Part shown: positions 9,442 to 27,176 of the stretch, piece by piece
How the letters are laid out: the number at the start of each line of letters is the position of its first letter
How positions within the stretch are numbered: the stretch's first letter is position 1
Assembly (NCBI GenBank): GCA_037144045.1
Contig: JBAWXN010000002.1
Span: 1 to 52,733 of the forward strand
Direction of reading: 5' to 3'
DNA: 52,733 nt
Origin: a bacterium
GTDB taxonomy: Bacteria; Patescibacteriota; Minisyncoccia; Phycocordibacterales; UBA1006
Made by a program: the position numbers and the translations under genes
Notes under the pieces: model-generated
Seen by the model: the letters and a program-made list of their open reading frames with translations, nothing else
What the model was told of the DNA's origin: nothing
The model's database searches: none

Positions 9442-9471
9442 ATTATCTAAACTAACCAAGTCAAATCTTTT

Positions 9472-11617: not shown

Positions 11618-11650
11618 TTCTCTGATATAGAAATGTTATACTGTCTTAAC

Positions 11651-12202: not shown

Positions 12203-12208
12203 TCCCAT

Positions 12209-13429
12209 ATGAAAGAACATCTTATCAAGCTTTGGAACTCGAATGATATCCCTATTGGTGTTCGTGTCCTGACATTTGCTACCTCTATACGCTGGATTGG
12301 CTGGGGTGTTGCTGAAAGCCTTATCCCAGTATTTCTATTTACGTTCGGACACTCTTATGCAAATGCGGGTATTCTGAAATCTTTTTATGATATTGCATTC
12401 ATCCTGGCCATTCCTTTGATTGGAGTACTGGCCGACCGCATGCGGGGAACGACTATTATTTTGATCGGTCTAAGCTTTTACATATTTGTTGGAACTGGAT
12501 ATTATCTGGCAGGACTTACGGGGCTTGTAATATTCATCATCATTGCAAGATTCATGAACGGATTAGGGTATGCATTTGACTCGGTCGGACGCGAAACATA
12601 TTTCAGACGGCACACCCCGAAAGAAAAGCTTGCGACCGTGTTCGGATATTTCGATTCAGTAGGGATTTTCTGGTGGATTGTTGCAGCTTTGTTTGGAATT
12701 CTCTTGGTAAAGTTTTTCTCAATCCCACTACTTTTGTTCTTGATTACTCCCACGGTTTTGATCGCAATGTTCATTATTTGGAGATTCAGGAAAAAAGAAA
12801 AACAAGAGGTGTTTTCTGACGATCAAAAAAGAGCTCGTTTTCGAGATATTCTTCGTGACTTCAAGGCTTGGGACTGGAGACTTAAATTGCTTGCCTCATT
12901 CAATTTCTTCATATCGTTTTCCGTTTCGAGTGTGTACTTTTTCCTGCCGATCGAAATCTATACCCAAGGTGGGGGATATACGCCGGTCATTGTTATGGGG
13001 GTTATCATGTCGCTCCCTGCGCTCCTCGGTTGGGGACTTGGGAACTTTTTCGACCGAAAAGGAATTAGAGTTTTTGGATACGGATTACTCTGCCTCGCGA
13101 TCCTTCTAGCACTTCTTGGGTTCATTACTGGGTATATTTGGCAGATTGCTATTGCGTTCGGGATCGGCATAATAACGGAACTTCTGTGGGTTGGTAGTCA
13201 GGAACTTATGACGTTATATACAAAGCCTGACCACTTTGGTCGAGTGGACGGCATCTCTCGCAGTATCGACAATGCTGGCGATCTTATCGGTCCACTCTTG
13301 GCTGGAGTAGTCATCGATATTTGGGGGCCTGATGTCACGTATTTCGGTATGGCATTGTTAGTAATGGCAATGACAGCGGTATTTCTTGTGGGGAGTCGAC
13401 ATATGAAACGTAAGGCAATAAACATATGA
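12209..13429 (+). CDS. MFS transporter
   Basis: About 12 TM segments; GVLADRMRG motif A. Confidence 0.9.
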   Translation: MKEHLIKLWNSNDIPIGVRVLTFATSIRWIGWGVAESLIPVFLFTFGHSYANAGILKSFYDIAFILAIPLIGVLADRMRGTTIILIGLSFYIFVGTGYYLAGLTGLVIFIIIARFMNGLGYAFDSVGRETYFRRHTPKEKLATVFGYFDSVGIFWWIVAALFGILLVKFFSIPLLLFLITPTVLIAMFIIWRFRKKEKQEVFSDDQKRARFRDILRDFKAWDWRLKLLASFNFFISFSVSSVYFFLPIEIYTQGGGYTPVIVMGVIMSLPALLGWGLGNFFDRKGIRVFGYGLLCLAILLALLGFITGYIWQIAIAFGIGIITELLWVGSQELMTLYTKPDHFGRVDGISRSIDNAGDLIGPLLAGVVIDIWGPDVTYFGMALLVMAMTAVFLVGSRHMKRKAINI

Positions 13430-13908
13430 ATAATAATCCCTCATCGTTAACTGTTAAAATAATAATCTCAACAACTCCCATCGAAGAGATCATTGAGCTG
13501 TCATATCTTTCGGGTCCGTCTGACAACAAACATTATCAGAAGATCATGGCTGGGTTTATCGCAAATAGTCTTAGCGCATCTCCAGATTTAGATCTGGGTA
13601 TTGTATATGGTTTGTACGAAGGAGAAAACCTTATTGCCTCCGCTCGAATTAAACAAGATGAATATACATCAACTGCTGTTTCGATTGAATATGTTGCTGT
13701 AAAACCTGAATATCGAGGGAAAGGATTGGGCGCAACTTTTATGAAAGGTTTGTTTAAAGAAATAAAAGAAAGATGGGGCAAGAAAATTGTCATGCTTGCG
13801 ACAGGCGAATCGAGGCCTTTTTACGATAAAATAGGCATGTCATTACTTGGGGAAATGACAAACAAGGATGAGGGTTCTCGATTTTATATGTATGAGTGGC
13901 TGGACTAG
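13426..13908 (+). CDS. GNAT family acetyltransferase
   Basis: VAVKPEYRGKGLG acetyl-CoA motif; FYDKIGM. Confidence 0.9.
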   Translation: MNNNPSSLTVKIIISTTPIEEIIELSYLSGPSDNKHYQKIMAGFIANSLSASPDLDLGIVYGLYEGENLIASARIKQDEYTSTAVSIEYVAVKPEYRGKGLGATFMKGLFKEIKERWGKKIVMLATGESRPFYDKIGMSLLGEMTNKDEGSRFYMYEWLD

Positions 13909-13921
13909 TATTCAAAAATAT

Positions 13922-14419
13922 ATGAATCTATCAAATGTTTCAATTCAAAAAACTTCAAAGAGTTTCGATTTCTGGCAGTATGTCTCTATCGTCATCCACG
14001 GACGAGAATGGTCATGGTTGATGTGGATTTTTATCATGACAACAATCGGGCATGGAAAATGCAATCTCTTCGTTGTTCGTGATCAAGACACGATTATCGG
14101 GGGATTTTTTGTCGCGGATTTTCCCGTTGCAAAATACAAGCCGTATAATATTTTCAACCACGAAGCGAAATTGAAAATAGCAGAGCTACGTAGAAACGGA
14201 TATCTCGGTTTCTGTTGTTTTATCATTTCCCCAGAATACCGTAATTCAGGCCTCGGTTCATTTGTATGGGAATTATTCTTTGAGAATCATGCAGTCAAGG
14301 TATTTTTCACCGCTTCTCAAAAAGCAGTTCCATTTTACTTACGGCACGGAGCGAAAGTTTTCTATTCAAGCCGACATACCATCTATACCTATGAAACTAC
14401 AAACAAAAACACCGTTTGA
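13922..14419 (+). CDS. GNAT family acetyltransferase
   Basis: ISPEYRNSGLG and AVPFYLRHG motifs; start refined from 13868. Confidence 0.8.
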   Translation: MNLSNVSIQKTSKSFDFWQYVSIVIHGREWSWLMWIFIMTTIGHGKCNLFVVRDQDTIIGGFFVADFPVAKYKPYNIFNHEAKLKIAELRRNGYLGFCCFIISPEYRNSGLGSFVWELFFENHAVKVFFTASQKAVPFYLRHGAKVFYSSRHTIYTYETTNKNTV

Positions 14420-14439
14420 GATATACGGTGTTTTTGTTT
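14401..14439. terminator. Bidirectional intrinsic terminator
   Basis: Perfect 15-bp stem AAACAAAAACACCGT/ACGGTGTTTTTGTTT between convergent genes. Confidence 0.8.
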
Positions 14440-14452
14440 GAGGTAATCCTTC

Positions 14453-14803
14453 TTACTCAAGCGGTTTAGATCCGTCTTTATTACTGAGCCCTTCTGCTGC
14501 AGAAAAAATCTTTGCATCTTGGTTAATTTCAACCTGTGGAAGGATATCCTTTCGCGCATTCTCCCCTTCGTACATTTCAGGATGAAGCGACCGATGAATC
14601 TTCTTGTAATTTTTGCTCGCTTCGTTATACCGTTGTACTATTTTGTAGTTTGCCTCTTCGTCAAAGTCTTCAGCTCCGAAATCTACACCATTTAGGATGT
14701 TAGCTGCCTCGACATATTCTGTGTCAGCTTTTTGTAGGTCAGCTTCTGTAAATGTCTCTTGCTTATTAAAGATTTTCTTAAAAAATGATGAGTCGCCTGG
14801 CAT
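14453..14803 (-). CDS. Hypothetical protein
   Basis: 116-aa acidic ORF. Confidence 0.6.
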   Translation of the reverse strand: MPGDSSFFKKIFNKQETFTEADLQKADTEYVEAANILNGVDFGAEDFDEEANYKIVQRYNEASKNYKKIHRSLHPEMYEGENARKDILPQVEINQDAKIFSAAEGLSNKDGSKPLE

Positions 14804-14903
14804 ATAGATTGGGTTAGTTGGTTCTTAATAGTGACGCTTGGACACTGATTTTATTATACGCTTTTCATGGCAGGAGGCTAGGGTATTAAATACCAAGTAA
14901 ACA

Positions 14904-15269
14904 TTACCATAGAAAAGAGGAAATTTGATGCCTAAAAATGAAAACAAGGATTGTAAAAACAAGAGTGCCCACAAGAGATTTTATCGAATAGTTATCCTGG
15001 TGATTCTTACCACCAATGAGCAAATAGGTAAGCTCATCAACAAACAATCCGAGCCCAATAGCAAATAACCACACATTTTTAGCCAGCAACCCAAAGACAG
15101 CTAAGAGGATACCATACATGTAATGGTGTATTCGGAAGCCTCCAATAGTCGGGCTTGCGATGGGTTTAAAGTAGAGAAAGATTCTTGTGGCAAGAATAGT
15201 TATAAGGAAAATGAGAAAAGATGCATTGTCGATACTCATACCATCATGGTAACATATCCATATGAACAT
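14904..15269 (-). CDS. Small membrane protein (HHYMYG motif)
   Basis: Hydrophobic helices with RIHHYMYG and GLFVDEL motifs; true start may be slightly downstream. Confidence 0.7.
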   Translation of the reverse strand: MFIWICYHDGMSIDNASFLIFLITILATRIFLYFKPIASPTIGGFRIHHYMYGILLAVFGLLAKNVWLFAIGLGLFVDELTYLLIGGKNHQDNYSIKSLVGTLVFTILVFIFRHQISSFLW

Positions 15270-15714
15270 CCGCCCCGCAACCGAACAAGACTTTCCTCGA
15301 CTCTACGAAATTGGAAGTCAGACCCCAGAACTTCGAGTCAGTGCCACAGAATCATTCATGGATGCCGACGAATTTAAATGGGCGATCACAGAATACAAAA
15401 ATGCGGTCTTTCTGATTGCAGAATTAGATGGCTCGATTGTAGGTTTCATTTACGCTAATGCTAAAGACCTGGACAAGCCGGTCAAACATAAATACGCCTG
15501 CTTGGTATACATGACTGTCCTACCTGAATTTAGGAAACAAGGGATTGCAAAAGAATTGTATGCTACCTGTTTGAGTGAGCTGAAAAGCAAAGGGATTACC
15601 CACATGTACGGATGGGCAAATGCTGAAAGCGACGGAGCCATCATTTCCTTTTTGGAAAAGGAAGGATTCGCCAAGGGGCACAAGTATGTCTGGATGGATA
15701 GAGAAATAGTTTAA
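15262..15714 (+). CDS. GNAT family acetyltransferase
   Basis: MNIRPAT..D; VLPEFRKQGIA; FLEKEGF. Confidence 0.9.
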   Translation: MNIRPATEQDFPRLYEIGSQTPELRVSATESFMDADEFKWAITEYKNAVFLIAELDGSIVGFIYANAKDLDKPVKHKYACLVYMTVLPEFRKQGIAKELYATCLSELKSKGITHMYGWANAESDGAIISFLEKEGFAKGHKYVWMDREIV

Positions 15715-15723
15715 AATAAAACG

Positions 15724-16182
15724 ATGAAAAAGATTGCTCAAAAAATTAAGATCAGTAAGGCAGAAGCCACCGATGCTCAAGAAATACGAAAACTTGAAAC
15801 TTTGGTATGGGAGGAAGAAGTGACAAACCAGTACGACAGTCCCATGTTCGTTCGCTTCGGATATGTATTCACTGCCAAGGAAGGCAAGAAGCTGGTGGGT
15901 GCCATCGTAGCTTTCAGAACGAACAAAAATGAGGTGTTCGTATCCGATATTGTTGTGCATCCATCCTATCAAGGCAAGAAAATTGGAGAGAAACTTTATA
16001 AGAAGCTCATTCAAAGCGTGAAAGGTAAAAATATCGTTTCATTCCTAGACCCAGATCTTATCCCAACACTTAATCTTCACAAGAAACTTGGAGGTAAAGT
16101 GGTGGCGAAAGTTAGAAACGCATATGATTTAAAAGAAGGACTGGAGACAGGTGTTCGGCTCATGGTTAGGATTAAAAATTAG
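15724..16182 (+). CDS. GNAT family acetyltransferase
   Basis: IVVHPSYQGKKIG; LHKKLG. Confidence 0.88.
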   Translation: MKKIAQKIKISKAEATDAQEIRKLETLVWEEEVTNQYDSPMFVRFGYVFTAKEGKKLVGAIVAFRTNKNEVFVSDIVVHPSYQGKKIGEKLYKKLIQSVKGKNIVSFLDPDLIPTLNLHKKLGGKVVAKVRNAYDLKEGLETGVRLMVRIKN

Positions 16183-16660
16183 CAATCCCCAGGTTTTTTA
16201 GGTGTTCTTGAATGAGTGCGACATCCACAAGGTGTTTTGGTTTGTTGTATGCTTGCTTAAATTTTAAAATATCTGTCAGTGAAGCAAAGCGAACAGTATC
16301 AATTACCTCTGATCTTTCGAGCAAATCTTCAAAAGAAGGTGTAATATTTCCGCAATTTACATCCAAATAAAGTTCCACCGAACCGCGTCGCAGATATACT
16401 TGCCCTAATTTATCGCTATAAGTCCAGGGGATTTGTTCCCATCCTTGCTGTTTGCATGTTTCAAAAAGGGTTGGAGTGACGACAATATCAATATCATCTA
16501 CATTCCTGATAGCATGTGCTGCCATAGGGCTACTTCCAACAATAATGTACTGATTGCTTTGGAAATTCAGGTTTTTGATTGTCGTGAAAATATCTATTCC
16601 ATTTCCCGGAAGGATGATAACTGCATCGGTTTTTGAGATTTGGATACTAGGTGATTTCAT
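16172..16660 (-). CDS. Nucleotidyltransferase-superfamily protein
   Basis: GS...AAHAIRNVDDIDIVV NTase motif; C-terminal K....KH..D. Confidence 0.65.
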   Translation of the reverse strand: MKSPSIQISKTDAVIILPGNGIDIFTTIKNLNFQSNQYIIVGSSPMAAHAIRNVDDIDIVVTPTLFETCKQQGWEQIPWTYSDKLGQVYLRRGSVELYLDVNCGNITPSFEDLLERSEVIDTVRFASLTDILKFKQAYNKPKHLVDVALIQEHLKNLGIANF

Positions 16661-16730
16661 AAGCTTATTCTAACACTAGAGCCAGGTAAGACCATGAAGG
16701 AAGATGGTTAGATCAGCAACTGGTAATACC

Positions 16731-16759
16731 TTGACAAAACGCCCATTTGTTGCTATACT
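16731..16759 (+). promoter_or_regulatory. Sigma70 promoter of the DGR target gene
   Basis: TTGACA (16731-16736), 17 nt, TATACT (16754-16759) with an extended TG. Confidence 0.8.
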
Positions 16760-16826
16760 ACCCCTAAGCAAGTATTCTTGCCGACTGCTCCGACAGATTT
16801 CGGAAAACCTTCAAAATATCATACGC

Positions 16827-17489
16827 ATGGCAAATGTACGTGACATGGGGCTTGGACAATGGAATGAATTTTCTGTTGCACTCCACAAGGCTGGTTTCGA
16901 TACCGACCTTATCCAAAAGATTATTAACGCCAGAGACAACAAGCTGGCAAAAGCGATGTACACGGCTGTAATAGGTGAAGAACTGGACGAACGCTTCGGA
17001 CCCGCAATTGTGGAATTCGAGCTTACCGTTCCCACCGACTACAATCACGATACGCAGATAGACACTTCCGGTGCAAAAGCCAGAAAGGAGAAAACTACGT
17101 ATTACTACAACGATGACTTGACCAGCAAGAACTTTGCAAAAGCTACGAACAAATTGGTTCCCGGCAAAACCTACAAGGTGAAAATCTTCCCGATACTTTC
17201 AACGGTAACGAGCGAAGATTGCATGGCGTTATTGCGCAAGCAAAAAGCTATACTGGTAGGCGGACAGGGTGCTACATTAGTTTACGACCTTGCAAAAGAC
17301 AAGTTGCCCAAAGGTAAATGGACGGCTTCCTTTGATGAAAAGGACGCATTGTGGAAAGACGCTGACGGGGACCGTAGGGTGCCTTACGTGCACGCGTTCA
17401 CGGACGGTGGCTTCAAGTTCAACCTCGGCAACTTCGGGCTTGTCTGGCATTCTGTCAACTGTGTTCTTTGCTTCTGCGAACTAATTTAA
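16827..17489 (+). CDS. DGR target protein with C-terminal variable region (CLec-like fold expected)
   Basis: Last 120 nt match the TR with adenine-specific mismatches. ATG 16827 preferred because the ORF-track start at 16704 lies upstream of the promoter. Confidence 0.9.
   Translation: MANVRDMGLGQWNEFSVALHKAGFDTDLIQKIINARDNKLAKAMYTAVIGEELDERFGPAIVEFELTVPTDYNHDTQIDTSGAKARKEKTTYYYNDDLTSKNFAKATNKLVPGKTYKVKIFPILSTVTSEDCMALLRKQKAILVGGQGATLVYDLAKDKLPKGKWTASFDEKDALWKDADGDRRVPYVHAFTDGGFKFNLGNFGLVWHSVNCVLCFCELI
17360..17479 (+). repeat. DGR variable repeat (VR)
   Basis: 120-nt ungapped match to 17830-17949 with 11 mismatches, all opposite TR adenines. Confidence 0.97.
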
Positions 17490-17541
17490 GTACTTAGGTA
17501 CTTGGATTCTTAATGTCATTGTGTCCTTAGATACTTTGTCC

Positions 17542-17572
17542 GTGGCTTCGCGAATGCGAAGCCACTTTTTTT
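17542..17572 (+). terminator. GC-rich hairpin downstream of VR (DGR homing hairpin and/or terminator)
   Basis: GTGGCTTCGC-GAAT-GCGAAGCCAC followed by T7. A second hairpin AAGTAC-TTAG-GTACTT lies at 17488-17503. Confidence 0.7.
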
Positions 17573-17829
17573 ATACCAAAAATCACTTATACTACATCTC
17601 GGAAAGCGATCAGTGTTCGGCTACGGCTTCATGCGATCAATTTCTCGTCTGGGAATATGCGAGAGGCTCGTCGGGTACGCCTTGCGAGAGAGTGCATCCC
17701 TTCATGAAAAAAATATAAATTAGTCGGTGCAACACATCCGCGGACAATTTGTGTCCCGAGTAAAATACAGAGGGTGGCTGGTGCTGTCTTTGGTGGAATG
17801 GAAGGTGTGTTGTACATTGCTTGCGTGTG

Positions 17830-17949
17830 CGCTGACGGGAACCGTAGGGTGCCTAACGTGAACGCGAACACGGACGGTGACTTCAAGTTCAACCTCGGCA
17901 ACTTCGGGAATGACTGGAATTCTGACAACTGTGTTCTTTGCTTCTGCGA
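17830..17949 (+). repeat. DGR template repeat (TR)
   Basis: Nine AAC/AAT codons in the VR frame; has an A at every position where VR differs. Confidence 0.97.
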
Positions 17950-17961
17950 CTCATGGATTTT

Positions 17962-17987
17962 CTCCCGCTATTTCGTGGGAGTTTTTT
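17962..17987 (+). terminator. Terminator-like hairpin just 3' of TR
   Basis: CTCCCGC/GTGGGAG stem plus T6; overlaps the avd stop codon. Confidence 0.55.
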
Positions 17988-18306
17988 CTTGAAGGTTTTT
18001 CTTCCATCCGCCGAGCATGCGCCCGCATTCGTCGAGTTGTAGTATAATCTTCGCGTAAATCTCGTGGTTGATGACTTTATGCTCCCATCCGAGTTGCAAG
18101 AAGAACTTGAGCAGATCTGATTTGCCGATAGCGTGGGATACGAGCGACAGTTTCTCAAACTTGTCATAAGCAAAGGTTGCCTGAAAGAGTAGTTCGAGGA
18201 GTTCAAGAAAAATATTGTCGATCTTGCAACCAAGAGTGTGCCTATCAACCTTGGAAACGTTTGCTAAATGGTCATGCCAAACCCTGTACGATTCTTTCGC
18301 CTGCAC
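17968..18306 (-). CDS. avd: DGR accessory variability determinant (four-helix bundle); 5' end possibly frameshifted at a G12 tract
   Basis: RHTLGCKID, DLLKFFLQLGWE and ECGRMLGGW Avd motifs. The frame stays open upstream (PPPPIIPLVL) but has no start codon. Confidence 0.85.
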   Translation of the reverse strand: MQAKESYRVWHDHLANVSKVDRHTLGCKIDNIFLELLELLFQATFAYDKFEKLSLVSHAIGKSDLLKFFLQLGWEHKVINHEIYAKIILQLDECGRMLGGWKKNLQEKTPTK

Positions 18307-18325
18307 GAGAACAAGCGGTATGATC

Positions 18326-18337
18326 GGGGGGGGGGGG
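18326..18337 (+). repeat. G12 homopolymer tract between avd and RT
   Basis: Twelve consecutive G. Confidence 0.95.
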
Positions 18338-18362
18338 AGAATTTCGGGTCTTTAACTTTAAT

Positions 18363-19343
18363 ATGTTCACTCATAAATACAACAATATCATATCGGTGGA
18401 AAATCTGCTTTCGACATGGGAGCGTTTCCTCAAAGGAAAGCGTGGGAAAAAGGATGTGATGATTTTTCAGTCGAAGTTTTCCGATAATATTCTTGCGTTG
18501 CACAAAGAGCTTGTGGGGCGGTCATATGTTCATGGGGCATATTCGGCGTTCAATGTGTCGGATCCGAAGCCGAGAAACATCCACAAGGCGGAAGTTCGCG
18601 ACCGACTGCTCCACCACCTCATCTACAAGGAGCTGTATTGGTATTTTGATACTCGATTCATCCACGATTCGTATTCGTGTCGCAAGGATAAAGGAACCCA
18701 TAAGGCGCTCGACAGGTTTCGTGAATTTGCTGGAAAGGTATCCAAAAACAACACCCGAACGTGCTACGTTTTGAAATGTGATATTAGAAAGTTCTTCTCG
18801 AGCATTGACCATGAGACGCTTCATATAATTCTGAAACGGCATATCGAAGACCCTGAGATGCACTGGCTCATCGGTCAGGTTGTCTCGAGTTTTCATACGA
18901 CAAGGGTTGGTGTGGGGCTTCCGCTTGGCAACCTTACTTCTCAACTGTTGGTGAATATCTACATGCATGAGTTCGATATGTTCGTTAAGCAGGAGCTTCG
19001 TGTTAAATATTATTTAAGGTACGCGGACGATTTTGCTGTTCTTTCGGATGACAGGAAGTATCTGGAAGAAATACTTATCAAGATGGAGGAATTTCTGAAA
19101 ACTAAATTAAAGCTAAGTCTTCACGAGGACAAGGTGTATATCAAGACGTATGCGACAGGTGTGGACTTTTTGGGATGGGTTCATTTTCCATACCACAGGC
19201 AGATACGTACGACGACAAAACACAAAGTTGTTAGAAATCTGAAAGGATATCCGAAACCCGAAACGGTGAGCTCATATAGGGGGTTGCTAGAGCATGGAGA
19301 TACTTATGATTTGAGAAGACGGACAGGGTTGCAACCGTTATAG
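18363..19343 (+). CDS. DGR reverse transcriptase
   Basis: KPRNIH..EVRDRLLHH, KCDIRKFF.SIDH, GLPLGNLTSQ and YLRYADDF motifs; no maturase/endonuclease tail; adjacent TR/VR. Confidence 0.97.
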   Translation: MFTHKYNNIISVENLLSTWERFLKGKRGKKDVMIFQSKFSDNILALHKELVGRSYVHGAYSAFNVSDPKPRNIHKAEVRDRLLHHLIYKELYWYFDTRFIHDSYSCRKDKGTHKALDRFREFAGKVSKNNTRTCYVLKCDIRKFFSSIDHETLHIILKRHIEDPEMHWLIGQVVSSFHTTRVGVGLPLGNLTSQLLVNIYMHEFDMFVKQELRVKYYLRYADDFAVLSDDRKYLEEILIKMEEFLKTKLKLSLHEDKVYIKTYATGVDFLGWVHFPYHRQIRTTTKHKVVRNLKGYPKPETVSSYRGLLEHGDTYDLRRRTGLQPL

Positions 19344-19370
19344 CTTTTCCGACACTTCCGTCAGGAACGA
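19338..19370. repeat. Partial att-like left arm (site A')
   Basis: TTATAGCTTT identical to site C (20928-20937), followed by CCGA...CAGG. Contains the RT stop codon; lacks the GAGC core. Confidence 0.4.
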
Positions 19371-19405
19371 CGGTAACTTTGTCATGAAGAAATGATGGTG
19401 ATCCT

Positions 19406-19505
19406 CCTCGATAATCAGGGTTCTGATCTGGCGCAGTCGTGCGAGCCAGCAAAAAGACCTTATTTTATATAGGTCTTTTTTGTTACCTTTTGGTGAATTC
19501 GAACC
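19406..19505. repeat. att-like site A
   Basis: CCTCGATAAT starts 37 nt before GAGC (19443), as in site B. Right arm: CAGCAAAAAGACCT hairpin, TTGTTACCTTT, then ATTCGAACC 50 nt after the core. Confidence 0.75.
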
Positions 19506-20081
19506 TTATACTATTCGCCTTACAATTTTTTGAAGTTTAGGTATAATTTCTTCCTTAAACCAAGGGTTCTTCTTTAGCCAGATATTGTTACGTGGTGAAG
19601 GGTGGACTAATGGTAGGTAGTTTGGTAAATATTCTTCAAATGATTTAACTGTTTCAGTGAGGGACTTTTTTCGTTTTGTGCCAAGATAAAGTTCCTGTGA
19701 ATACTGTCCAATTAAAATAGTTAATTCTATGTTTGGCATATTTTCTAAAATAAGTGGATGCCACTTTTCTGCAAAACCTTTTCGTGGTGGCACATCACCT
19801 CGCTCCTTGCTACCAGGAAAATAGAAATCCATTGGAACCAAAGCGACCTTCTTTTCATCATAAAAAATTTCTTTAATCATTCCGAGCCACGCTCTTAAGT
19901 TATCTCCGCTTAAATCATTCCACGGTACATTACTTTCTTGTGCTAAGCGTCCTGGTGCTTGTCCTATGATAAGTATCTTTGCAGACTTGTGAGCTGTGTA
20001 AATAGGTTCCCATCCTTTTTTGTGAAAAGGTTTGTTTTCTTTGTCATTTATAATTTCTCCTTTTATCTGCTTTAGGTTCAT
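19506..20081 (-). CDS. Uracil-DNA glycosylase superfamily protein
   Basis: IIGQAPG and LVHPSPRN UDG motifs; lies exactly between sites A and B. Confidence 0.9.
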   Translation of the reverse strand: MNLKQIKGEIINDKENKPFHKKGWEPIYTAHKSAKILIIGQAPGRLAQESNVPWNDLSGDNLRAWLGMIKEIFYDEKKVALVPMDFYFPGSKERGDVPPRKGFAEKWHPLILENMPNIELTILIGQYSQELYLGTKRKKSLTETVKSFEEYLPNYLPLVHPSPRNNIWLKKNPWFKEEIIPKLQKIVRRIV

Positions 20082-20100
20082 ATGCTAACTATATCATTTT

Positions 20101-20200
20101 CCTCGATAATTACTTGTCGAACATCCTCCCAAGTTCGGAGCAAAATTTTAATCTTATTTTGTAAAGGCAATTTTACATACTTTAAAAGAAGTTCGAACCT
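20101..20200. repeat. att-like site B
   Basis: GTCGAAC-N10-GTTCG-GAGC (core 20138), then GTTCGAACC at 20191. Confidence 0.8.
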
Positions 20201-20216
20201 GTGATATTATTTAGTT

Positions 20217-20927
20217 ATGAAAAAAATAACAGGTATTTTGTTTGTTGTTGGTGCGCTGATAGTAAACATACCGTACGCATTACTTATTAGTAATTTTAAT
20301 TATCCAGATATTTTAAGAGAACCTGCAGGAGTGGTGCTTACTAATTTTGCAGCTGGAGGTAGCAATTTGATCTATACTTGGCTCTTCTTTGCACTCGCAG
20401 GATTACCACTTCTTTTCGCTACAATAATGCTTGGAAAACTATGGAAGAATGCTTCTAGTACTCTGGTGAGCTTAGCTACTACTTTTGGAATAATCGCACT
20501 TGTCGCTCAGTTGATTGGTCTTTTGAGATGGGTCTTCGTTGTTCCAATACTAGCTCAGAATTATGTTGCGAACGGCGCTACAGAAGCGATACAGACAGCT
20601 TCGACCGTAGCATTTCAAACAGTTAACCAATTCGGAGGTGTACTCCTTGGGGAATACGTAGGTCAGCTTTTCAGTATTATTTCTATGTTCTTATTCAGTA
20701 TTATTATTTTACGTAATAAACTTTTGAAGTCGTGGGTTGCCTGGCTTGGTTTTGTGGCATCTCTAATCTATCTACTTGCCGAAACTGAACTATTTCATAC
20801 AGTTATACCTTCATTCCCAGTGGTGGATGTCGCTGGTCTACTTGGGAGTGTATTATGGATCGTTTGGTTAATTTCTATAGGGGTATTATTAATCACTCAG
20901 AAGAATTCTCCAAATCAAGCTCAGTAA
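20217..20927 (+). CDS. DUF4386-like membrane protein
   Basis: FNYPDILREP...GLLRWVFVVP.LA pattern; multi-TM; lies between sites B and C. Confidence 0.75.
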   Translation: MKKITGILFVVGALIVNIPYALLISNFNYPDILREPAGVVLTNFAAGGSNLIYTWLFFALAGLPLLFATIMLGKLWKNASSTLVSLATTFGIIALVAQLIGLLRWVFVVPILAQNYVANGATEAIQTASTVAFQTVNQFGGVLLGEYVGQLFSIISMFLFSIIILRNKLLKSWVAWLGFVASLIYLLAETELFHTVIPSFPVVDVAGLLGSVLWIVWLISIGVLLITQKNSPNQAQ

Positions 20928-21021
20928 TTATAGCTTTCCGAACATTGTCCCAGGTGCGGAGCCAGCAAAATCACCTTATAAAACAGGGTGATTTTTTGTT
21001 ACCTTTCTAGGAGTTCGAACC
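20924..21021. repeat. att-like site C
   Basis: TCCGAAC-N10-GTGCG-GAGC (core 20959), CAGCAAAATCACC hairpin, TTGTTACCTTT, then GTTCGAACC at 21013. Right arm closely similar to site A. Confidence 0.8.
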
Positions 21022-21058
21022 TGGCTAATTTATAGTATTAGTTCTATACTTTTATTAT

Positions 21059-21406
21059 ATGTTTATTATTACAGTATCACATTTAATCAATGTTCTAGTT
21101 GCCGGCGTAATAGCGTTGCTTTTAATGAGTAATGAGCGTCATATGAAAAAAGTATTTGGTGATGTAACTCCTGCAAGACAGATACTTTCATCTCTTTATA
21201 TGGCTATAGCAGTAGCTTCTTTCGTTGCGCTTGCTCTACCACAGTACGGTATTGCTATTGCTCTCGTACTTTTTCCTATTCAGATACTTTACAAGCTTTC
21301 TACACTGGTCACGGTGTCTTCAAAAAGCAATCCTGTAATCTGGTGTAATTTAGCGATTTCAATTGTGCACGCAATATCTCTTTACACTATTTACTTTCTT
21401 CAATAA
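21059..21406 (+). CDS. Small membrane protein
   Basis: 115-aa hydrophobic ORF; its stop codon lies inside site D. Confidence 0.75.
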   Translation: MFIITVSHLINVLVAGVIALLLMSNERHMKKVFGDVTPARQILSSLYMAIAVASFVALALPQYGIAIALVLFPIQILYKLSTLVTVSSKSNPVIWCNLAISIVHAISLYTIYFLQ

Positions 21407-21440
21407 TCGCAATTCGAACATCACCCCACGTTCGGAGCCA
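21400..21440. repeat. att-like site D (left arm + core)
   Basis: TTCGAAC-N10-GTTCG-GAGC (core 21435). Confidence 0.8.
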
Positions 21441-21452
21441 GTTAGTAATTCT

Positions 21453-21493
21453 CCAATAACAGCTATCCGAAATCCGTCCAAGGTTCGGAGCAT
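21453..21493. repeat. att-like site E (left arm + core)
   Basis: TCCGAAA-N10-GTTCG-GAGC (core 21488); its GGAG sits at Shine-Dalgarno distance from ATG 21494. Confidence 0.8.
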
Positions 21494-21949
21494 ATGAAAA
21501 AACTTCTTGAAAACAGTAGGTATATCGTCTATTTTGCAGTGGTGTCTTCACTGATCGCTTCTCTTGCAACGTTCGTATGGGCGACTGTTCGAATGCTTAC
21601 TACCTTGTACCACATGTTCCTTGAAATGGGTGGGGAGGGAGCAAATTTTGCGACGACTCATTTAGTAGGAATTCTTGACGCATTTATCCTTGCAGTCATT
21701 TTCTATATTTTCTCAGTCGCACTCCATGAGTTGTTCATCGGCGACCTTGATTTACCTAATTGGCTTGAGATCAGAACCCTTGATGACCTCAAAAAGAAAG
21801 TTTCGAGCGTAATCGCACTCATGCTCGCAGTCACCTTTTTGGAGCACATCACTCAATGGGTCGATCCACTCGGAACGCTTTACTTTGGTATTGCGATAGC
21901 GGTTGTCATCTTTGCACTCATTTTCTACATGAAGGAAAAGGATAAGTAA
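21494..21949 (+). CDS. YqhA/UPF0114 family membrane protein
   Basis: LD..LDDLKKKV..VI.L.LAVTFLE pattern. Confidence 0.85.
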   Translation: MKKLLENSRYIVYFAVVSSLIASLATFVWATVRMLTTLYHMFLEMGGEGANFATTHLVGILDAFILAVIFYIFSVALHELFIGDLDLPNWLEIRTLDDLKKKVSSVIALMLAVTFLEHITQWVDPLGTLYFGIAIAVVIFALIFYMKEKDK

Positions 21950-21961
21950 GAGCGCAATTTA

Positions 21962-22037
21962 GCGCTTCTCCCTTTTCGGAAATGGTTCAAAGTTGGAGCA
22001 AGAGTAGTATAAAAGAGCACGCAAGTGTTCTTTTTAT
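21962..22037. repeat. Degenerate att-like site F followed by a terminator hairpin (candidate array end)
   Basis: TTCGGAA-N10-GTTG-GAGC (core 21996; one base short), then AAAAGAGCAC-GCAA-GTGTTCTTTT. Confidence 0.55.
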
Positions 22038-22073
22038 CTTTAGCAGAATCTAAATCTATGCTATCGTTCTTAT

Positions 22074-23360
22074 ATGAATAAAAAATACACGATCATGGTA
22101 ATCGCTTGTGCAGTCCTTATTGGTGGGGTTCACTTTGCAGCTGCTCAAGAAACAATGCAGTTGCGAGCTGTTACCAATACACGTACCAATCTAAGAGTAT
22201 CCCCCGAACCGGAAACACCTACCATCGTCGTATCCGACACAACCCCTGTATTTGAAACATCTACTCCTACCCCATCACCAGTAATAACCGTTACTTCGGG
22301 AAGCACCGAGTTCAGTACCATAACCTGTATTAAGACAACAACAGGTTCATGTATTCTCTATTCTTGTTCAGATGGTACAAAAACAAATACGTGTGATTTA
22401 ATGTGTAAAACCACTAAACCGGCAGACCCCTCATTAGTTGGAGCCGTAGTAACCGATGAACCTAAGATCACCAGCTTCTTCCCTGAATCAGGTAATGCAG
22501 GTACCCAAGTTCGTGTCTATCTAACCAAAGGTCAGAAAGCTTTTTCAGGTCCAGATTCTATTGAAATCGGTGGGGTCAAAGCAAAAATGATCTTGTTCGG
22601 TAATGTTCCAGGAAGTAAGGCAGATTTCTACACAGACATTATTGTTCCTGAGGGTGCAAAGACGGGTAAAATTACGATTACCAAACCACAGACATTTGCA
22701 AAGTCGGGATCAAGTGATGCAGACTTTGTTGTAATCCCAACTCAGGATGCGCCTTTTATTACTTCGATAAAACCAATTGCTGGATATCCTGGACAGGAAG
22801 TCATCGTGGAATATTATATGGGAACGAAAACTTTTTCTGGACTGGATTCGATTGAAATCGGCGGAGTGCCGGTTGTCACAAAAATGCACAGTGATGTATG
22901 GGCGAAAAAGCCTCATGGGTATATGGAAAAAATTATCATTCCAGATAATGCAAAGTCAGGTAAAATTACCTTGAACAAGAAAAATTTTGGAAGCGTTTCC
23001 AGTAAAGATGATTTCATTGTTACTGCCGCAACCGATGCGCCAACCATCCTTTCGTTTTCACCGACAGGTGGATCGCCTGGTGACGAGATAATCCTTAAGG
23101 TAGTCGCTGGGAAGAAAAACTTTTCGGCACCTGATGCGATTTATATCGGGGAAGTAAAAGCAGAAATAGTTAAAGGTCTTACTGATACAACTGGAATACG
23201 AACCTACACTATCAGGGTTCCTGAAAATGCAAAAACTGGAAAAATTATTTTCCGAAAACCAGGAGCGTTCGTAGATGTAGCCACCGTTACAGATTTTCAA
23301 GTTTATGGGGCTGTGAAGTCTTTCTTCCACAAGGTAGGAAATTTCTTCAAAGGAAAATAA
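22074..23360 (+). CDS. Secreted protein with three IPT/TIG-like repeats
   Basis: Signal peptide, Thr/Pro-rich linker, three repeats starting PKITSFFPESG / PFITSIKPIAG / PTILSFSPTGG. Confidence 0.8.
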   Translation: MNKKYTIMVIACAVLIGGVHFAAAQETMQLRAVTNTRTNLRVSPEPETPTIVVSDTTPVFETSTPTPSPVITVTSGSTEFSTITCIKTTTGSCILYSCSDGTKTNTCDLMCKTTKPADPSLVGAVVTDEPKITSFFPESGNAGTQVRVYLTKGQKAFSGPDSIEIGGVKAKMILFGNVPGSKADFYTDIIVPEGAKTGKITITKPQTFAKSGSSDADFVVIPTQDAPFITSIKPIAGYPGQEVIVEYYMGTKTFSGLDSIEIGGVPVVTKMHSDVWAKKPHGYMEKIIIPDNAKSGKITLNKKNFGSVSSKDDFIVTAATDAPTILSFSPTGGSPGDEIILKVVAGKKNFSAPDAIYIGEVKAEIVKGLTDTTGIRTYTIRVPENAKTGKIIFRKPGAFVDVATVTDFQVYGAVKSFFHKVGNFFKGK

Positions 23361-23367
23361 TAGCACT

Positions 23368-23395
23368 AAAAATCTCCCGATATTGGGAGATTTTT
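23368..23395. terminator. Bidirectional intrinsic terminator
   Basis: AAAAATCTCCC/GGGAGATTTTT stem between convergent genes. Confidence 0.75.
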
Positions 23396-23403
23396 GGTTT
23401 AAC

Positions 23404-23754
23404 TTAAAAAAATCTTTCAATTACTATTTTACCGTCTTTAATTTTATAAACGCAGATTTCAGATTCTTTATTTCGCCCACGAGTTTTACTGGTAATATCC
23501 ATAGTCATAACACAAGCAAAACTGTCATCAGCAACAATAGGGTCACTGATGGTCATCTCATGCATTTCTGCAATATCTGACTGCCATTCTTGAGACGCTG
23601 CTTGTGCTTCTTCTTTACCATGTCGGACGACTCCTCCCCATTCAGCGAGTTCATGAGTCTCCCAGCCAGGTGCAAAAAGCTCATCCCATGCTCCTTCAAA
23701 ATTATTTGCTCGACACAGCTCTACTAATCTATTTGCTATTTCTTGTGTGTTCAT
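23404..23754 (-). CDS. SnoaL/NTF2-like protein
   Basis: MNTQEIANRLVELCR...EICVYKIKDGKIV.ERFF pattern. Confidence 0.8.
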   Translation of the reverse strand: MNTQEIANRLVELCRANNFEGAWDELFAPGWETHELAEWGGVVRHGKEEAQAASQEWQSDIAEMHEMTISDPIVADDSFACVMTMDITSKTRGRNKESEICVYKIKDGKIVIERFF

Positions 23755-23827
23755 ACTATCTTTAATTAACTTTTAATATACTCATTATAATGCAAAACTT
23801 ATTCAAACAGTACCCCCTTCAAGATAA

Positions 23828-24316
23828 TTATTTCAGGTAACTGTCGAACCAGATCGCATGACACGTGTAACCACCCACGTTCTTTTGTAAGTAGTCTTGA
23901 TGATAGCTTTCAGCTTTGTAAAAGGTAGTTAATGGTTCTAATGTTGTAACTACAGGATCGCTCCATCGTTTTGATGCATTTACAATTTTAATAAAATTTT
24001 CTCCTTCATTTTTTTCCTCCTCATTTCCATAGAAAATTGCAGAGCGGTATGAGGTACCCTTATCATTTCCCTGTTGATTAAGCGTTGTTGGATTATGGAT
24101 CTGAAAGAAGAAATCGAGGAGGTTTTTATATGAAGTCTTGGACGGATCGTATTCAATTTCCACGGCTTCGGCGTGCCCTGGATGATTATCGTAGGTTGGA
24201 TTCTCATTCTTTCCACCAGTATAACCAACCTCAGTAGCGATCACACCTGGCTGGGTCCTAATAAGGTCTTCCAGCCCCCAGAAACATCCTCCAGCGAGTA
24301 CTATTTTCTTATTCAT
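23828..24316 (-). CDS. msrA: Peptide methionine sulfoxide reductase MsrA
   Basis: GGCFWG active site, GYTGG, HAEAV, YHQDY; start refined from 24331. Confidence 0.95.
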
Positions 24317-24317
24317 A

Positions 24318-24725
24318 CTATTTTTCATCAATATCTAAACAAACTGAATTAATACATAGATGTTTCCCTGTTTTTGATTCTGCATCATCAAACAAATGTC
24401 CCAAATGAGATTTGCAATTCGCACATACTACCTCAGTACGGTGCATTCCCATACTGTCATCATCTTGCATTTCTATAGCTCCGGGCAGTGCCTCGTCAAA
24501 ACTTGGCCACCCACGCAATCCCGCCATGTCTGAATGAAATTTCGCAGTACTAGGAAATAAAGGCGCACTACAAGCTTTGCAAGTATAGGTACCTTCTGGA
24601 TTTTCTTTATAAAATCTTCCAGAAAAAGGTGCCTCGGTACCTTTTTCTCTTAACACGTTATATTGCTCAGGTGTTAACTTATTCTTGAACTCTTCTTCAT
24701 TAGTAGGCATGTCATGATTATTCAT
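24318..24725 (-). CDS. msrB: Methionine-R-sulfoxide reductase MsrB (Zn-type)
   Basis: CKAC/CANC Zn motifs, GWPSF, HLGHLF, CINS. Confidence 0.95.
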
Positions 24726-24752
24726 ATAGGTTGTTTATTTGTATTATAAAGA

Positions 24753-26564
24753 TTAATTAAATAAGTAGAGATATTTTCCATAACCATTCCGATCCATTTC
24801 TTCTTTAGGAATAAATTTAAGTGAAGCAGAGTTAGTGCAAAAACGCCTACCACCTGCTTCTTTGGGACCATCCTCGAAAACGTGACCAACGTGTCCGCCA
24901 TCGCTTCGTATTTCTGTACGAGTCGTGGAGAGCGAATTGTCCGCATGCATGGTTACTGAATCATCATCAATCGTCCTCCAGAAGCTTGGCCATCCGGTGC
25001 CTGAATCATATTTATGAGTACTCGAAAAAAGTGGTTTTCCCGTGACGATGTCGACATAGATACCAGCTGCCTTGTTATTCCAATAGGAATTATTAAATGG
25101 CGACTCGGTCCCGCTCTCTGCAACCACATGGTATGCGAGCGGATCCAAGTTCTTGAGCAGTTCCGCAATTTCTTCTTCGGTGTAATCGTAGTCACTCTTT
25201 TTTGATATACCTTCCTTTGCTTGAGTTTTTGCCTGCTCTGATTGTAAAAATTGTATTGCAGCATCCTTTCCCCATGTTTCTTCTACGAATCCAGCTCGAC
25301 CTGACCCTTTCTTATATCGCTCATAATGATCCGCTGCCTTTTTGTAATAATCCTGATGATATTCTTCGGCTTTAAAGAATGTGGTGAAAGGAAGTATTTC
25401 CGTTGCTATCGGCTTATTGAATAAATCACTTTTCTCTAATCGTTGTTTTGAATCTCGAGCCACCATTTCTTGCTCTTCGCTTTGAAAGAAAATTGCGGTG
25501 GTGTATTGAAATCCCTTGTCTGCAAACTGTCCGTTGATATTTGTCGGATCAATATGTGACCAATAAATATCTAATATTTTCTCCGTAGAAATAACACTTG
25601 GATCATAGGTTATCTGTACCGCTTCGCGATGTTTTGTCGTTCCTTGTGCAACCGAGAGATATGATGCATTTGATTCGTCACCTCCCGCATATCCAGAAAC
25701 CGCATCGATGACTCCGACCTCTTCTTGAAAATATGCTTCGGTGCACCAAAAGCATCCCCCTGCAAGCGTAATGGTTTCATACTGCATGTCTGAAGTATTC
25801 AGAATTGATTGCCCTTGCACTGAATTATTTTTAGGGGCAAATTTCTCGATGAGTGAATCTTCAAGTTGTATCGTTGCGCCATACCCTGAATCTAAAATAA
25901 GAGTTTCTATTTTCTTGTCATAACCCGTAAGAACTGCAATACCTACCAGAATAATAAGCACTCCAAATACTTTCTTGATCGTTCCTGCGGTCTGCATATG
26001 CGCAGTTACTTTATTCACAATTTTTTGACCAAAGTAAGCAATAACCAGTAGTGAGATCGCGAGACCAGTGGTGAAGCCAAGGAGATAGATAAATCCTCCG
26101 ATAAATGTTGCAGGGAGAACTGTGGCAATAATAAAGAGATATGTCGGAGAACATGTAGTGAACACTGGACCCAGTGCCAAACCGATCAGTATATCCCCCT
26201 TATAGCTTTTCTTTTGATAACCTGTTCCAACTGCTTTATTGCTCGCAATATTCAGTTTATTAATGTAGGGTATCTTTGCCCAAAATGATGGAGATACTAT
26301 AGCAAGACCAACAAGAATAATCACGACTCCAGAAAAACTCGTCCAGAATAGTTGAGGAATAGTAATAAACAGTGTTGTTGCTTTTAAAAGTAATGTAAAC
26401 AAGACCACTGATACAGATAGTGAACCAATTACTGTAAGTGCTCGTTTTGAGACTCCTCGAGAGCCTTCTTCTGATGCTCCTATTACCACAGGGAGCAGTG
26501 GTAATATACATGGTGCAAGTACGGTAAATACTCCTGCTAGAACTGAGATAATAAAGAAGACCAT
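24753..26564 (-). CDS. CcdA/DsbD-type TM domain fused to MsrA and MsrB
   Basis: N-terminal APCILPLLP and FTTCSP membrane domain; GGCFWC MsrA; GTGWPSF...HVGHVF..GP...RFCTNS MsrB without Zn cysteines. Confidence 0.9.
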   Translation of the reverse strand: MVFFIISVLAGVFTVLAPCILPLLPVVIGASEEGSRGVSKRALTVIGSLSVSVVLFTLLLKATTLFITIPQLFWTSFSGVVIILVGLAIVSPSFWAKIPYINKLNIASNKAVGTGYQKKSYKGDILIGLALGPVFTTCSPTYLFIIATVLPATFIGGFIYLLGFTTGLAISLLVIAYFGQKIVNKVTAHMQTAGTIKKVFGVLIILVGIAVLTGYDKKIETLILDSGYGATIQLEDSLIEKFAPKNNSVQGQSILNTSDMQYETITLAGGCFWCTEAYFQEEVGVIDAVSGYAGGDESNASYLSVAQGTTKHREAVQITYDPSVISTEKILDIYWSHIDPTNINGQFADKGFQYTTAIFFQSEEQEMVARDSKQRLEKSDLFNKPIATEILPFTTFFKAEEYHQDYYKKAADHYERYKKGSGRAGFVEETWGKDAAIQFLQSEQAKTQAKEGISKKSDYDYTEEEIAELLKNLDPLAYHVVAESGTESPFNNSYWNNKAAGIYVDIVTGKPLFSSTHKYDSGTGWPSFWRTIDDDSVTMHADNSLSTTRTEIRSDGGHVGHVFEDGPKEAGGRRFCTNSASLKFIPKEEMDRNGYGKYLYLFN

Positions 26565-26565
26565 A

Positions 26566-27141
26566 TTATTTTATTTCTGATACCAAGTTCGCAAGCTTGG
26601 GACTACCGCTCCATTTTTTAATCAGGTTCCCATCCTTATCAACCTGAACAAGGGTGTGCTGATAGGTTACGCCGTACTTCTTTTTTAGTTCTGTTTCTTT
26701 GTCATAATCTACTTTCAAGATACTAACCCCTTCCGGGATTGAGCTTATATTTTTTTCAATATCTGAGTTAAGACTTCTACATGATGGACACCATGAAGCG
26801 TGAAAAAAAAGAACCACATCTCCTTTCTCTGCTCGTGCAATTTTTTCTGGTGAATACGCTTCGTATGAGCCAGTTTTCATCATTGCTTTTTCTTCAGTCA
26901 TCTTGGTATCTTCCATGGCTTCTTTTTTAATCATGGTTTCTGTTTCCATTTCTTCTTTCTTGACCATAGTGCCTCCTTCGGGCACCTTTGTATCTTCCAT
27001 AGCTTTCTGCTCCATTTGGTCTTTTACCATCATCGCATCATCGTTATTTCTCATTGATGCATATACCCCACCGACGATAACCACAAGTGCAATAACTCCA
27101 ATAATAATGTACGTGTTTTTGTTCATAAATAAGTTGTTCAT
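26566..27141 (-). CDS. Membrane-anchored thioredoxin-family protein with a Met-rich linker
   Basis: TM anchor, Met/Lys/Glu-rich linker, FHASWCPSC active site. Confidence 0.9.
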   Translation of the reverse strand: MNNLFMNKNTYIIIGVIALVVIVGGVYASMRNNDDAMMVKDQMEQKAMEDTKVPEGGTMVKKEEMETETMIKKEAMEDTKMTEEKAMMKTGSYEAYSPEKIARAEKGDVVLFFHASWCPSCRSLNSDIEKNISSIPEGVSILKVDYDKETELKKKYGVTYQHTLVQVDKDGNLIKKWSGSPKLANLVSEIK

Positions 27142-27176
27142 CTTGTATTAATAATAACACTGTAAGTATAAACAAA

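Follow-up and report, generated by a model that had tools for sequence, protein, structure and literature searches.

A row of single-gene units behind tRNA-Asn in Patescibacteria is bounded by detached 3′ ends of large serine recombinase genes

Stacking of mobile units at the 3′ end of a conserved gene by Ccr serine recombinases is known from SCCmec composite islands, pseudo-SCC and the Enterococcus cassette chromosome, in which the units, which for staphylococcal cassette chromosome (SCC) elements measure many kilobases (5-60 kb), are bounded by repeated integration-site sequences and in some cases carry no recombinase of their own and can be excised by the Ccr of a neighbor. An attP placed inside the integrase gene, with integration altering or splitting the reading frame, is known from Myxophage Mx8 (intP/attP) and Sulfolobus SSV1, which use tyrosine recombinases and have no cassette array. 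Among the closest described systems are also the ssrA islands of Dehalococcoides (DsiB; McMurdie et al. 2011, PMC3146451), tandem islands behind the transfer-messenger RNA (tmRNA) gene in which dsiB lies on the reverse strand at the attL edge, its 3′ end overlapping attP/attL, and is perhaps complete only on the circle or behind a neighboring island that donates a 3′ fragment, and whose recombinase-less units have been proposed to be mobilizable in cis. Here we analyze a 52,733-nt stretch of a Patescibacteria genome (contig JBAWXN010000002.1 of assembly GCA_037144045.1, positions 1 to 52,733; hereafter the window), in which a large serine recombinase (LSR) gene overlaps a tRNA-Asn gene and small recombinase-less gene units further downstream are separated by repeat sites that we call A to E. 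We consider it likely that these sites are junctions produced by site-specific insertions of LSR elements behind tRNA-Asn, with attP located within the LSR gene. The initial annotation of the window, made from its sequence alone, had taken an integrase-free, one-gene-per-site array driven by a serine recombinase to be undescribed, which was too strong given that tandem serine-recombinase islands with recombinase-less units, and a gene overlapping attP, were already known (PMC3146451). A full-text literature search returned no description of such a system in Patescibacteria.

Compared with SCC, the locus has a tRNA rather than rlmH as its target, single-gene units rather than units of 5-60 kb, attP inside the recombinase gene, no paired recombinases, and a resident LSR that falls outside the Ccr family, its NCBIfam scores of 46.8 for CcrA (cut-off 700) and 40.4 for CcrB (cut-off 900) being far below the cut-offs. 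With the ssrA islands it shares tandem units behind a small stable-RNA gene, a recombinase gene that overlaps the att site and units without a recombinase; the ssrA islands, however, target the T-loop of tmRNA with a 20-bp direct repeat, carry a six-gene integration module with a second recombinase, DsiA, and lie in the SCC size range (PMC3146451), whereas in the present system the terminal bases of tRNA-Asn are targeted, the core measures 4-5 bp, there is a single LSR, and the one-gene units have a median length of 851 bp. A boundary direct repeat of 15-20 bp is typical of both the rlmH and the ssrA systems, in contrast to this 4-5-bp core, and the detached tail is here a conserved, recognizable peptide in many Patescibacteria lineages. 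The likeness to integrons and to CALINs (clusters of attC sites lacking integron integrases) lies in a row of units that share one direction, measure 0.5-1.8 kb, mostly hold one gene, carry very diverse and often unknown cargo and enter at one fixed chromosomal site. Integrons, however, have IntI, attI/Pc and attC hairpins, none of which occurs here, where no Phage_integrase match was found among the window proteins scanned; the sites derive from coding sequence and are conserved as LSR-tail codons rather than as a structure, with only a 6-bp internal dyad, and some cassettes have a promoter-like TTGACA box of their own at the start, as seen in 38 of 245 right arms. Tycheposons of Prochlorococcus, of which 910 of 937 elements carry tyrosine recombinases, resemble the locus in repeated insertion at tRNA genes, where each newcomer displaces older elements inward and where remnants and cargo stay behind, and differ in partial tRNA copies, lengths of several kilobases, replication modules and the lack of a one-gene array (Hackl et al., bioRxiv 10.1101/2020.12.28.424599). 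The features distinct here are the tRNA-Asn end as target, a single non-Ccr LSR, one-gene units and a conserved tail peptide in many Patescibacteria lineages.

Six positions in the window share a GAGC core, as first described, and in five of them, B (20138), C (20959), D (21435), E (21488) and F (21996), it is extended to GGAGC; site A (19443) reads GCGAGC. All sites read on the plus strand as left arm (P arm), core and right arm. Site A occupies 19399-19505 (P arm 19399-19442, core GAGC 19443-19446, right arm 19447-19505, the last consisting of a CCA-like CAG, a hairpin and ATTCGAACC); site B 20095-20199 (P arm and core 20095-20141, right arm 20142-20199 with terminal GTTCGAACC); site C 20920-21021 (P arm and core 20920-20962, right arm with a hairpin and GTTCGAACC); site D 21391-21438; and site E, 53 nt past D, 21445-21491. 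The left-arm pattern at fixed spacing that had been ascribed to the six sites, in degenerate form at A and F, stands for B to E: CGAA-N11-GT(T/G)CGGAGC matches B, C, D and E only, four matches against 0.7 expected, and a repeat search independently grouped B to E as a 43-nt family and the right arms of A and C, which are 75% identical, as a 64-nt family. A left-arm profile built on about 150 arms from other genomes recovered from the 52.7-kb window only B, C and D, at E-values of about 1e-11 to 1e-13 (nhmmer; 8e-13, 5.5e-11 and 8.5e-12, respectively), and site E at 0.025, while a peptide search returned exactly A to E. These five are the sole copies in 52.7 kb and all fall within 2.1 kb (19.4-21.5 kb). 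Site F (21969-22034; TTTTCGGAAATGGTTCAAAGTTGGAGC) retains the core and matched neither by profile nor by peptide search of the window, and it may at best be a decayed distal copy, doubtful as a site; behind it lies a terminator-like hairpin (22011-22034; -11.9 kcal/mol, z -4.3). A further decayed partial left arm without a core, A′ (19338-19380, plus strand), shares a 17-nt match (82%) with the start of arm C, and alignment by eye gives about 60-65% identity. An independent Logan assembly of the source run (X1) covers 18322-27206 with a single contig, which excludes a binning chimera or an assembly artifact as the source of the array. That contig begins at about 18322, beside a G12 tract between avd and the reverse transcriptase (RT) gene (18300-18322), and variation in homopolymer length may break the assembly there.

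Translated on the minus strand, starting at CTC in the core, all five left arms encode a conserved peptide (LRTW-DVR--IIEE), namely LARLRQIRTLIIEE in A, LRTWEDVRQVIIEE in B, LRTWDNVRKAIITE in C, LRTWGDVRIAIIEE in D and LRTLDGFRIAVIGE in E, with the frame of arm A running on as L|ARLRQIRTLIIEED... to a stop at about 19340. Among B to E, the number of variable columns rises from 5 and 6 at the first two codon positions to 11 at the third, and synonymous changes, such as ACT/ACC/ACG and CGA/CGG, make up 24 of the 56 codon pairs that differ. Across 186 distinct public arms, mean entropy by codon position is 0.72, 0.61 and 1.13, the third being the most variable, and the first stop of the tail frame falls 13-20 codons from the core leucine in 160 of them. 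Complete LSR genes from public Patescibacteria loci traverse an arm of the B-E type together with the core, ending in ..LLRTWDNVRKAIIEENQQYL (L081), ..WLRTWDDVRKVIIEEK (L049), ..LLRTWDDVRMEIMRKNY (L108) and ..MLRTWDDVRTDILERK (L100). Because the arms are conserved codon by codon and match the tails of complete LSRs, we conclude that they are the 3′ coding ends of LSR genes, and that attP therefore lies inside the recombinase gene, the last ~15 codons of which are split off by insertion. The proposal that the sites are serine-recombinase att junctions is thereby upheld. The four LSRs just named, with their near-identical LRTWDDVR tails, are only 24-46% identical in the remainder, which indicates that tails and arms are swapped between recombinase lineages, an exchange that, to judge from these comparisons, seems to be caused by recombination itself. 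We also considered whether the sites could be copies of the tRNA 3′ end and rejected this, as the spacing from TTCGA to the core is 10 nt in the tRNA and 15 nt in the arms and the arms encode an LSR tail; similarly, Rfam searches for a structured RNA at the sites gave chance-level matches only, at both gathering and permissive thresholds.

The 120 best relatives of the resident LSR (42-57% identity) divide by their tails into 57 that are antisense-tRNA-like (for example ..CAGQDSNLRR.. and ..LPDLDSNQD..SYH), 24 with a native L..(V/I)RT.II(E/D) ending (such as P0029, ..LLAGLRRVRTYILS, and P0075, ..LNSIRTAAIEE) and 39 that are unclear; arm A fits the native kind. One native-tail homolog, P0034, sits in a non-Patescibacteria element, and P0029 is on a 12.5-kb contig.

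An arm-pattern search of a species-level genome collection, with loci taken as 8-kb stretches, placed the site in at least 119 stretches, almost all from metagenome-assembled genomes (MAGs) of Patescibacteria. With the profile, 225 sites were found in the public loci, 54 of the 123 matched loci had 2-6 sites, and in all 54 every site of the array pointed in the same direction. The link to tRNA-Asn seen in the window recurs, since tRNA-Asn accounts for 27 of the 48 tRNAs in these loci and 24 of the 27 tRNA-Asn loci have their sites on the strand of that gene and downstream of it. Units are indeed mostly single-gene, with a median length of 851 bp (quartiles 651-1402) and a single open reading frame (ORF) of at least 60 amino acids in 57 of 104, and 134 of 167 unit ORFs are directed away from the tRNA. 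Twenty sampled cargo proteins included nucleoside deoxyribosyltransferases, NUDIX, peptidase S51, DnaJ-domain, SRPBCC, 3-hydroxyisobutyrate-dehydrogenase-like, glyoxalase-like, cupin, HD, NYN, LysE and IMP-cyclohydrolase-like proteins and several without a family; overall, cargo types include uracil-DNA glycosylases (UDG), NUDIX proteins, nucleoside deoxyribosyltransferases, small dehydrogenases, transporters and many proteins of unknown kind, some with their closest relatives in other phyla. In several loci (L031, L044, L053, L071, L118) a P-arm site is found no more than about 150 nt from where the retrieved sequence starts, which would fit assembly graphs that branch where populations differ past the core. 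A phage vehicle was tried and rejected: the site pattern has no match among 2.9 million IMG/VR contigs, and the LSR island of the window has no PHROG structural match.

Units bounded by the cores are shared between otherwise different genomes. The window sequence from 20137 to 20961, which holds the DUF4386 gene, is 96.1% identical to L001/L002 of a hot-spring genome over exactly 825 nt, from core B to core C; the unit was found in a hot-spring metagenome contig (run X3) and in the matching MAG contig L001, and homology between the window and L001 ends at the GGAG cores on either side. The genome of L001 is unrelated (PPIase 59% and EngB 42% identical, no synteny), and there the unit again follows tRNA-Asn, flanked by units for NUDIX and alcohol dehydrogenase; the 13.7 kb of that contig that were examined contain no LSR. 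Other core-bounded units are likewise common to two loci whose neighboring sequences differ (L036/L095, 92.6%; L096/L115, 91%). In L001 the left arm of the DUF4386 unit (2855-2886) is a 19-nt copy of the tRNA-Asn 3′ end (CGAATCCTGCCGGGGGAGC) about 800 nt downstream of the true tRNA-Asn, and a second B-type arm there is unexplained by simple LSR insertion. The unit common to L115 (about 3473) and L096 (about 3834) begins exactly at the right-arm GTAGAAGTTCGAACC motif rather than at the core, which hints that breakage or recombination may also occur at this motif.

A contig from a sister sample (X2) bears on the boundary at site A. It reads ..GGTTCGAATCCTGCCGGGG|GAGCCAGCAAAAAGACC.. and is 100% identical to the window from 19443 over 198 nt, such that a tRNA-Asn 3′ end (..GATTGGTTGTAGGTTCGAATCCTGCCGGGG) is joined at core A to the right arm of A and the UDG cassette, the arrangement expected before the entry of the LSR island. 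Since X2 joins the tRNA-Asn end to the right side of A, site A is the far end (attR) of a 14.9-kb LSR island, and this island lies between the tRNA and an older cassette, which in X2 adjoins a tRNA-Asn end directly. Homology to both L001 and X2 breaks at the core, and GGAG(C) alone is common to the tRNA junction and sites A to E. In X2 (43.7-kb contig) and X4, from other organisms, the halves of tRNA-Asn are split by 244 letters at the anticodon (window 4490/4491), which may be a tRNA gene with an intron, possibly group I-like.

The tRNA-Asn (GTT) gene itself lies at 4457-4529 on the plus strand (ARAGORN; Rfam tRNA, 69.8 bits). The attB-type left arm consists of its T-arm and acceptor end, and the GGAGC core at 4525-4529 spans the acceptor end and the discriminator base and reaches one base beyond them. 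Overlapping the tRNA gene at the attL edge and reading toward it is the LSR gene (573 aa; 4490-6211, minus strand), the only LSR of the window, with Pfam matches to Resolvase (9e-19), Recombinase (2e-11) and, weakly, a zinc ribbon, and with distant PDB matches of residues 232-325 to the A118 integrase. It ends ..EMLSFVVL|PRQGSNLRPND*, its last 12 codons passing through the core into antisense tRNA-Asn, and going by this ending it is the integrated, tail-swapped form. The island behind the tRNA (4530-19442), bounded by the tRNA core and site A, starts with a P′ arm (4530-4598, plus strand) made of a 16-bp hairpin with a T-run (4534-4569; -21.5 kcal/mol, z -6.2) and GGTTCTAAC (4590-4598), which corresponds to the codons L-E-P of the conserved LSR motif; other LSR genes have the same layout. 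As the strong hairpin stands directly behind the tRNA, the LSR element supplies tRNA-Asn with a new terminator. The initial annotation had likened this junction to the cassette sites, and the layout does agree, but the final motif is about 61 nt out rather than 49-50. Because the island is the unit nearest the tRNA, it is probably the latest insertion.

In the mechanism that we draw from these observations, attP lies within the last ~40 codons of the recombinase gene in this LSR lineage and crossover takes place in GGAG at the extreme 3′ end of the tRNA (acceptor end and discriminator base), leaving the tRNA intact. Insertion sets the recombinase gene beside the tRNA, with its frame then entering antisense tRNA (..VVL|PRQGSNLRPND*), and brings a replacement hairpin terminator for the tRNA. 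The final ~15 codons of the gene, which make up the P arm (LRTW-DVR--IIEE; at A, LARLRQIRTLIIEE), end up on the opposite side of the element, so that each site consists of a P arm, a core and then the beginning of the next unit. New units would presumably arrive at the tRNA end, and LSRs would move units that lack an LSR, either as small circles in trans or as passengers excised with a neighboring LSR element. A P arm could also complete the frame of any LSR gene landing to its right, which would explain the open tail frame in 160 of 186 arms, and the swap of tails would change the enzyme.

The geometry of the half-sites is compatible with such an exchange at the core. The distance from TTCGA(T/A)C to the core is 10 nt in the tRNA and 15 nt in P arms, a 5-bp offset that we take to be the attB/attP offset of zinc-ribbon contact in the A118/LI integrase structure. 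The constant parts of the sites are the left arm (tRNA T-arm or P arm) and the core; left half-sites are conserved, and right arms have no inverted half-site motif near the core. In the public loci the same kinds of right arm occur behind tRNA-Asn ends and behind P arms, as is expected if left arms are exchanged at the core. Where an element carries an LSR gene, LSR coding sequence follows the core on the right, with a hairpin and T-run and then GGTTCGAAC, the codons of the conserved LSR motif (R/L)(F/L)EP, 61-70 nt out, and cassette right arms of the A/B/C kind are a shorter, non-coding version of this layout. In the window, (G/A)TTCGAACC begins 50, 49 and 50 nt past the core in A, B and C, and hairpins fold at -12.6 and -12.4 kcal/mol (z -3.5 and -2.8) in the right arms of A and C, as had been noticed at the outset; the right arm of B has no hairpin. 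Of 46 non-coding right arms in public loci, 40 have GTTCGAAC at +49 to +52, whereas 6 of 7 LSR-coded ones have it at +61 or +70, a fixed geometry that argues for one propagating lineage of short ends rather than for random deletion.

Several observations weigh against the reading of A to E as junctions of LSR insertion behind tRNA-Asn. An LSR occurs in only 11 of about 123 public 8-kb loci; arm A, which belongs to the resident LSR, differs in type from B-E, and LSRs with a B-E-type tail are only 22-30% identical to the resident one. Right arms are heterogeneous, with GTTCGAAC in only 53 of 245, and the sites therefore appear one-sided, an uncommon trait among LSRs. A gradient of decay in arm quality was absent across 29 arrays (Spearman rho about 0, in 8-kb slices that are a biased sample) and so lends entry at the tRNA end no independent support. 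The tRNA portion of the X2 junction has 4 mismatches to the window tRNA in 30 positions, so that junction comes from another lineage and is not the excised state of this strain, and no circular junction or deletion joint was present in assembled Logan contigs, which drop rare forms.

How the small units travel is the point at which an alternative fares best. They might move by accretion only, solely as passengers of a neighboring LSR element that excises at a more distal site, and be left behind once that element departs alone, a form of cis-mobilization as proposed for cis-mobilizable elements (CIMEs) and recombinase-less ssrA islands. We regard this as a substantial possibility, if one that we rate somewhat below even, and travel as passengers fits the data equally well as movement in trans. 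Each P arm has an open LSR tail frame able to complete a co-excised LSR gene, LSR genes do read through P arms within chromosomal loci, a 0.8-kb circle has no obvious route between cells, and the same has been proposed for Dehalococcoides (PMC3146451); on the other hand, the DUF4386 unit stands in L001 without an LSR in the examined 13.7 kb, and most arrays have no LSR within 8 kb. It is improbable, by comparison, that the sites are nonfunctional fossils, that is, scars of full-size LSR islands whose recombinase and most of whose cargo were deleted in place. The scarcity of LSRs in most arrays, the heterogeneous right arms, the degenerate copies A′, E and F with a 53-nt empty unit, and the lack of circles in assembled contigs would all suit such decay, but independent deletions would not yield the same core-ended 825-nt unit in two unrelated genomes, nor the other common units, and the fixed geometry of the non-coding right arms (GTTCGAAC at +49 to +52 in 40 of 46) and the high conservation of P arms (open tail frame in 160 of 186) also speak against it. 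It is highly improbable that the sites have no relation to the LSR and are an ordinary intergenic repeat, whether REP- or MITE-like, a terminator module or an operator, or else a tyrosine-integron attC array. Their position at gene ends, the hairpins at some of them and the inverted repeat TCGAAC-N10-GTTCG would suit such a reading, but this is countered by codon-periodic conservation and identity to LSR C-termini, the strict tRNA-Asn link, homology that breaks at the core and not at the dyad, the absence of any Rfam family or tyrosine integrase, and the confinement of just five copies to 2.1 kb of the 52.7-kb window.

Behind the LSR island, the window holds four recombinase-less units of 0.5-0.8 kb, in each of which a single cargo gene stands between two att arms, together with a 53-nt unit that is empty. 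A Pfam scan of the intervening genes found no recombinase, in keeping with the claim that none of them is an integrase. The first cassette carries a gene of the uracil-DNA glycosylase superfamily (19506-20081, minus strand; Pfam UDG 3.8e-21), the sole cassette gene of the window in reverse orientation. The second is the core-to-core module at 20137-20961 (plus strand) with the DUF4386 gene at 20217-20927 (Pfam), the third encodes a 115-aa hydrophobic protein without a family match (21059-21406, plus strand), and the fourth a UPF0114/YqhA membrane protein (21494-21949, plus strand; Pfam). Sites D and E enclose the empty unit (21439-21491), 53 nt without a gene, and a similar 60-nt unit occurs in L021. 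The assertion that sites sit exactly at gene edges is correct in most places: the DUF4386 stop (20925-20927) lies inside arm C, the stop of the 115-aa gene (21404-21406) inside arm D, the UDG stop adjoins ATTCGAACC of site A, and the GGAG of site E, 5 nt upstream of the ATG at 21494, doubles as a ribosome-binding-like site of the UPF0114/YqhA gene. It does not extend to the RT gene, the stop of which lies in A′, outside site A proper. The best match of the window UPF0114 protein is 77% identical, and its closer relatives (60-70%) are mostly from Deltaproteobacteria or a deltaproteobacterium-like dap-operon context; of the loci of the nearest copies (77% and 70%), L127 has no P arms and L128 is a deltaproteobacterium-like dap operon.

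The 14.9-kb island itself carries, in addition to the LSR, an isochorismatase, an MFS transporter and GNAT genes, a full-length LOOT RNA (9291-9413, plus strand; Rfam RF03000, 95.9 bits against a gathering threshold of 46.4) and a diversity-generating retroelement (DGR), and a 497-aa gene next to the LSR was assigned no family. No recognized phage or conjugation genes were found in it. The DGR is complete and lies at the far end of the island (16704-19343, with the RT gene at 18363-19343), which makes it cargo of the mobile island; its variable repeat (VR; 17360-17479) and template repeat (TR; 17830-17949) align without gaps and with 11 mismatches, all at adenines of the TR. A relation of the sites to the DGR was considered and discarded, as the VR/TR pair (17360/17830) has no similarity to them.

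Taken together, these data show that the arms are tails of LSR genes, that the arrays are tied to tRNA-Asn across Patescibacteria and that units are exchanged between genomes with core-precise ends; as far as sequence comparison goes, they support the cassette-array reading in its architecture and in its link to a recombinase. A wider proposal, to which we give tentative and minority weight, is that Patescibacteria run a serine-recombinase counterpart of the integron, in which one-gene cassettes would be captured, shuffled and exported at tRNA-Asn and the tail of the recombinase would be swapped at each event. The cassettes would have no recombinase and about 100 bp of att sequence from the split LSR 3′ end, and the alternation between an antisense-tRNA tail beside the tRNA and a native LRTW-DVR tail on the circle or behind another cassette may act as a built-in state switch, which would explain both the open tail frames in orphan arms and the near-identical tails of LSRs that are 24-46% identical.

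The finding explains the repeats of the window and assigns the cargo from 4.5 to 19.4 kb, including the DGR and the LOOT RNA, to a single mobile island. As integration rewrites the tail of the enzyme, a recombinase with attP inside its gene offers a simple model of self-regulation, and compact tRNA-targeting LSR/att pairs are potentially useful as tools. If the proposal is true, gene capture of the integron kind would have evolved with a serine recombinase as its chassis. Little is understood of gene gain in Patescibacteria, whose genomes are tiny; if true, a widespread tRNA-Asn site at which single accessory genes accumulate would be a main route by which this very large group acquires genes.

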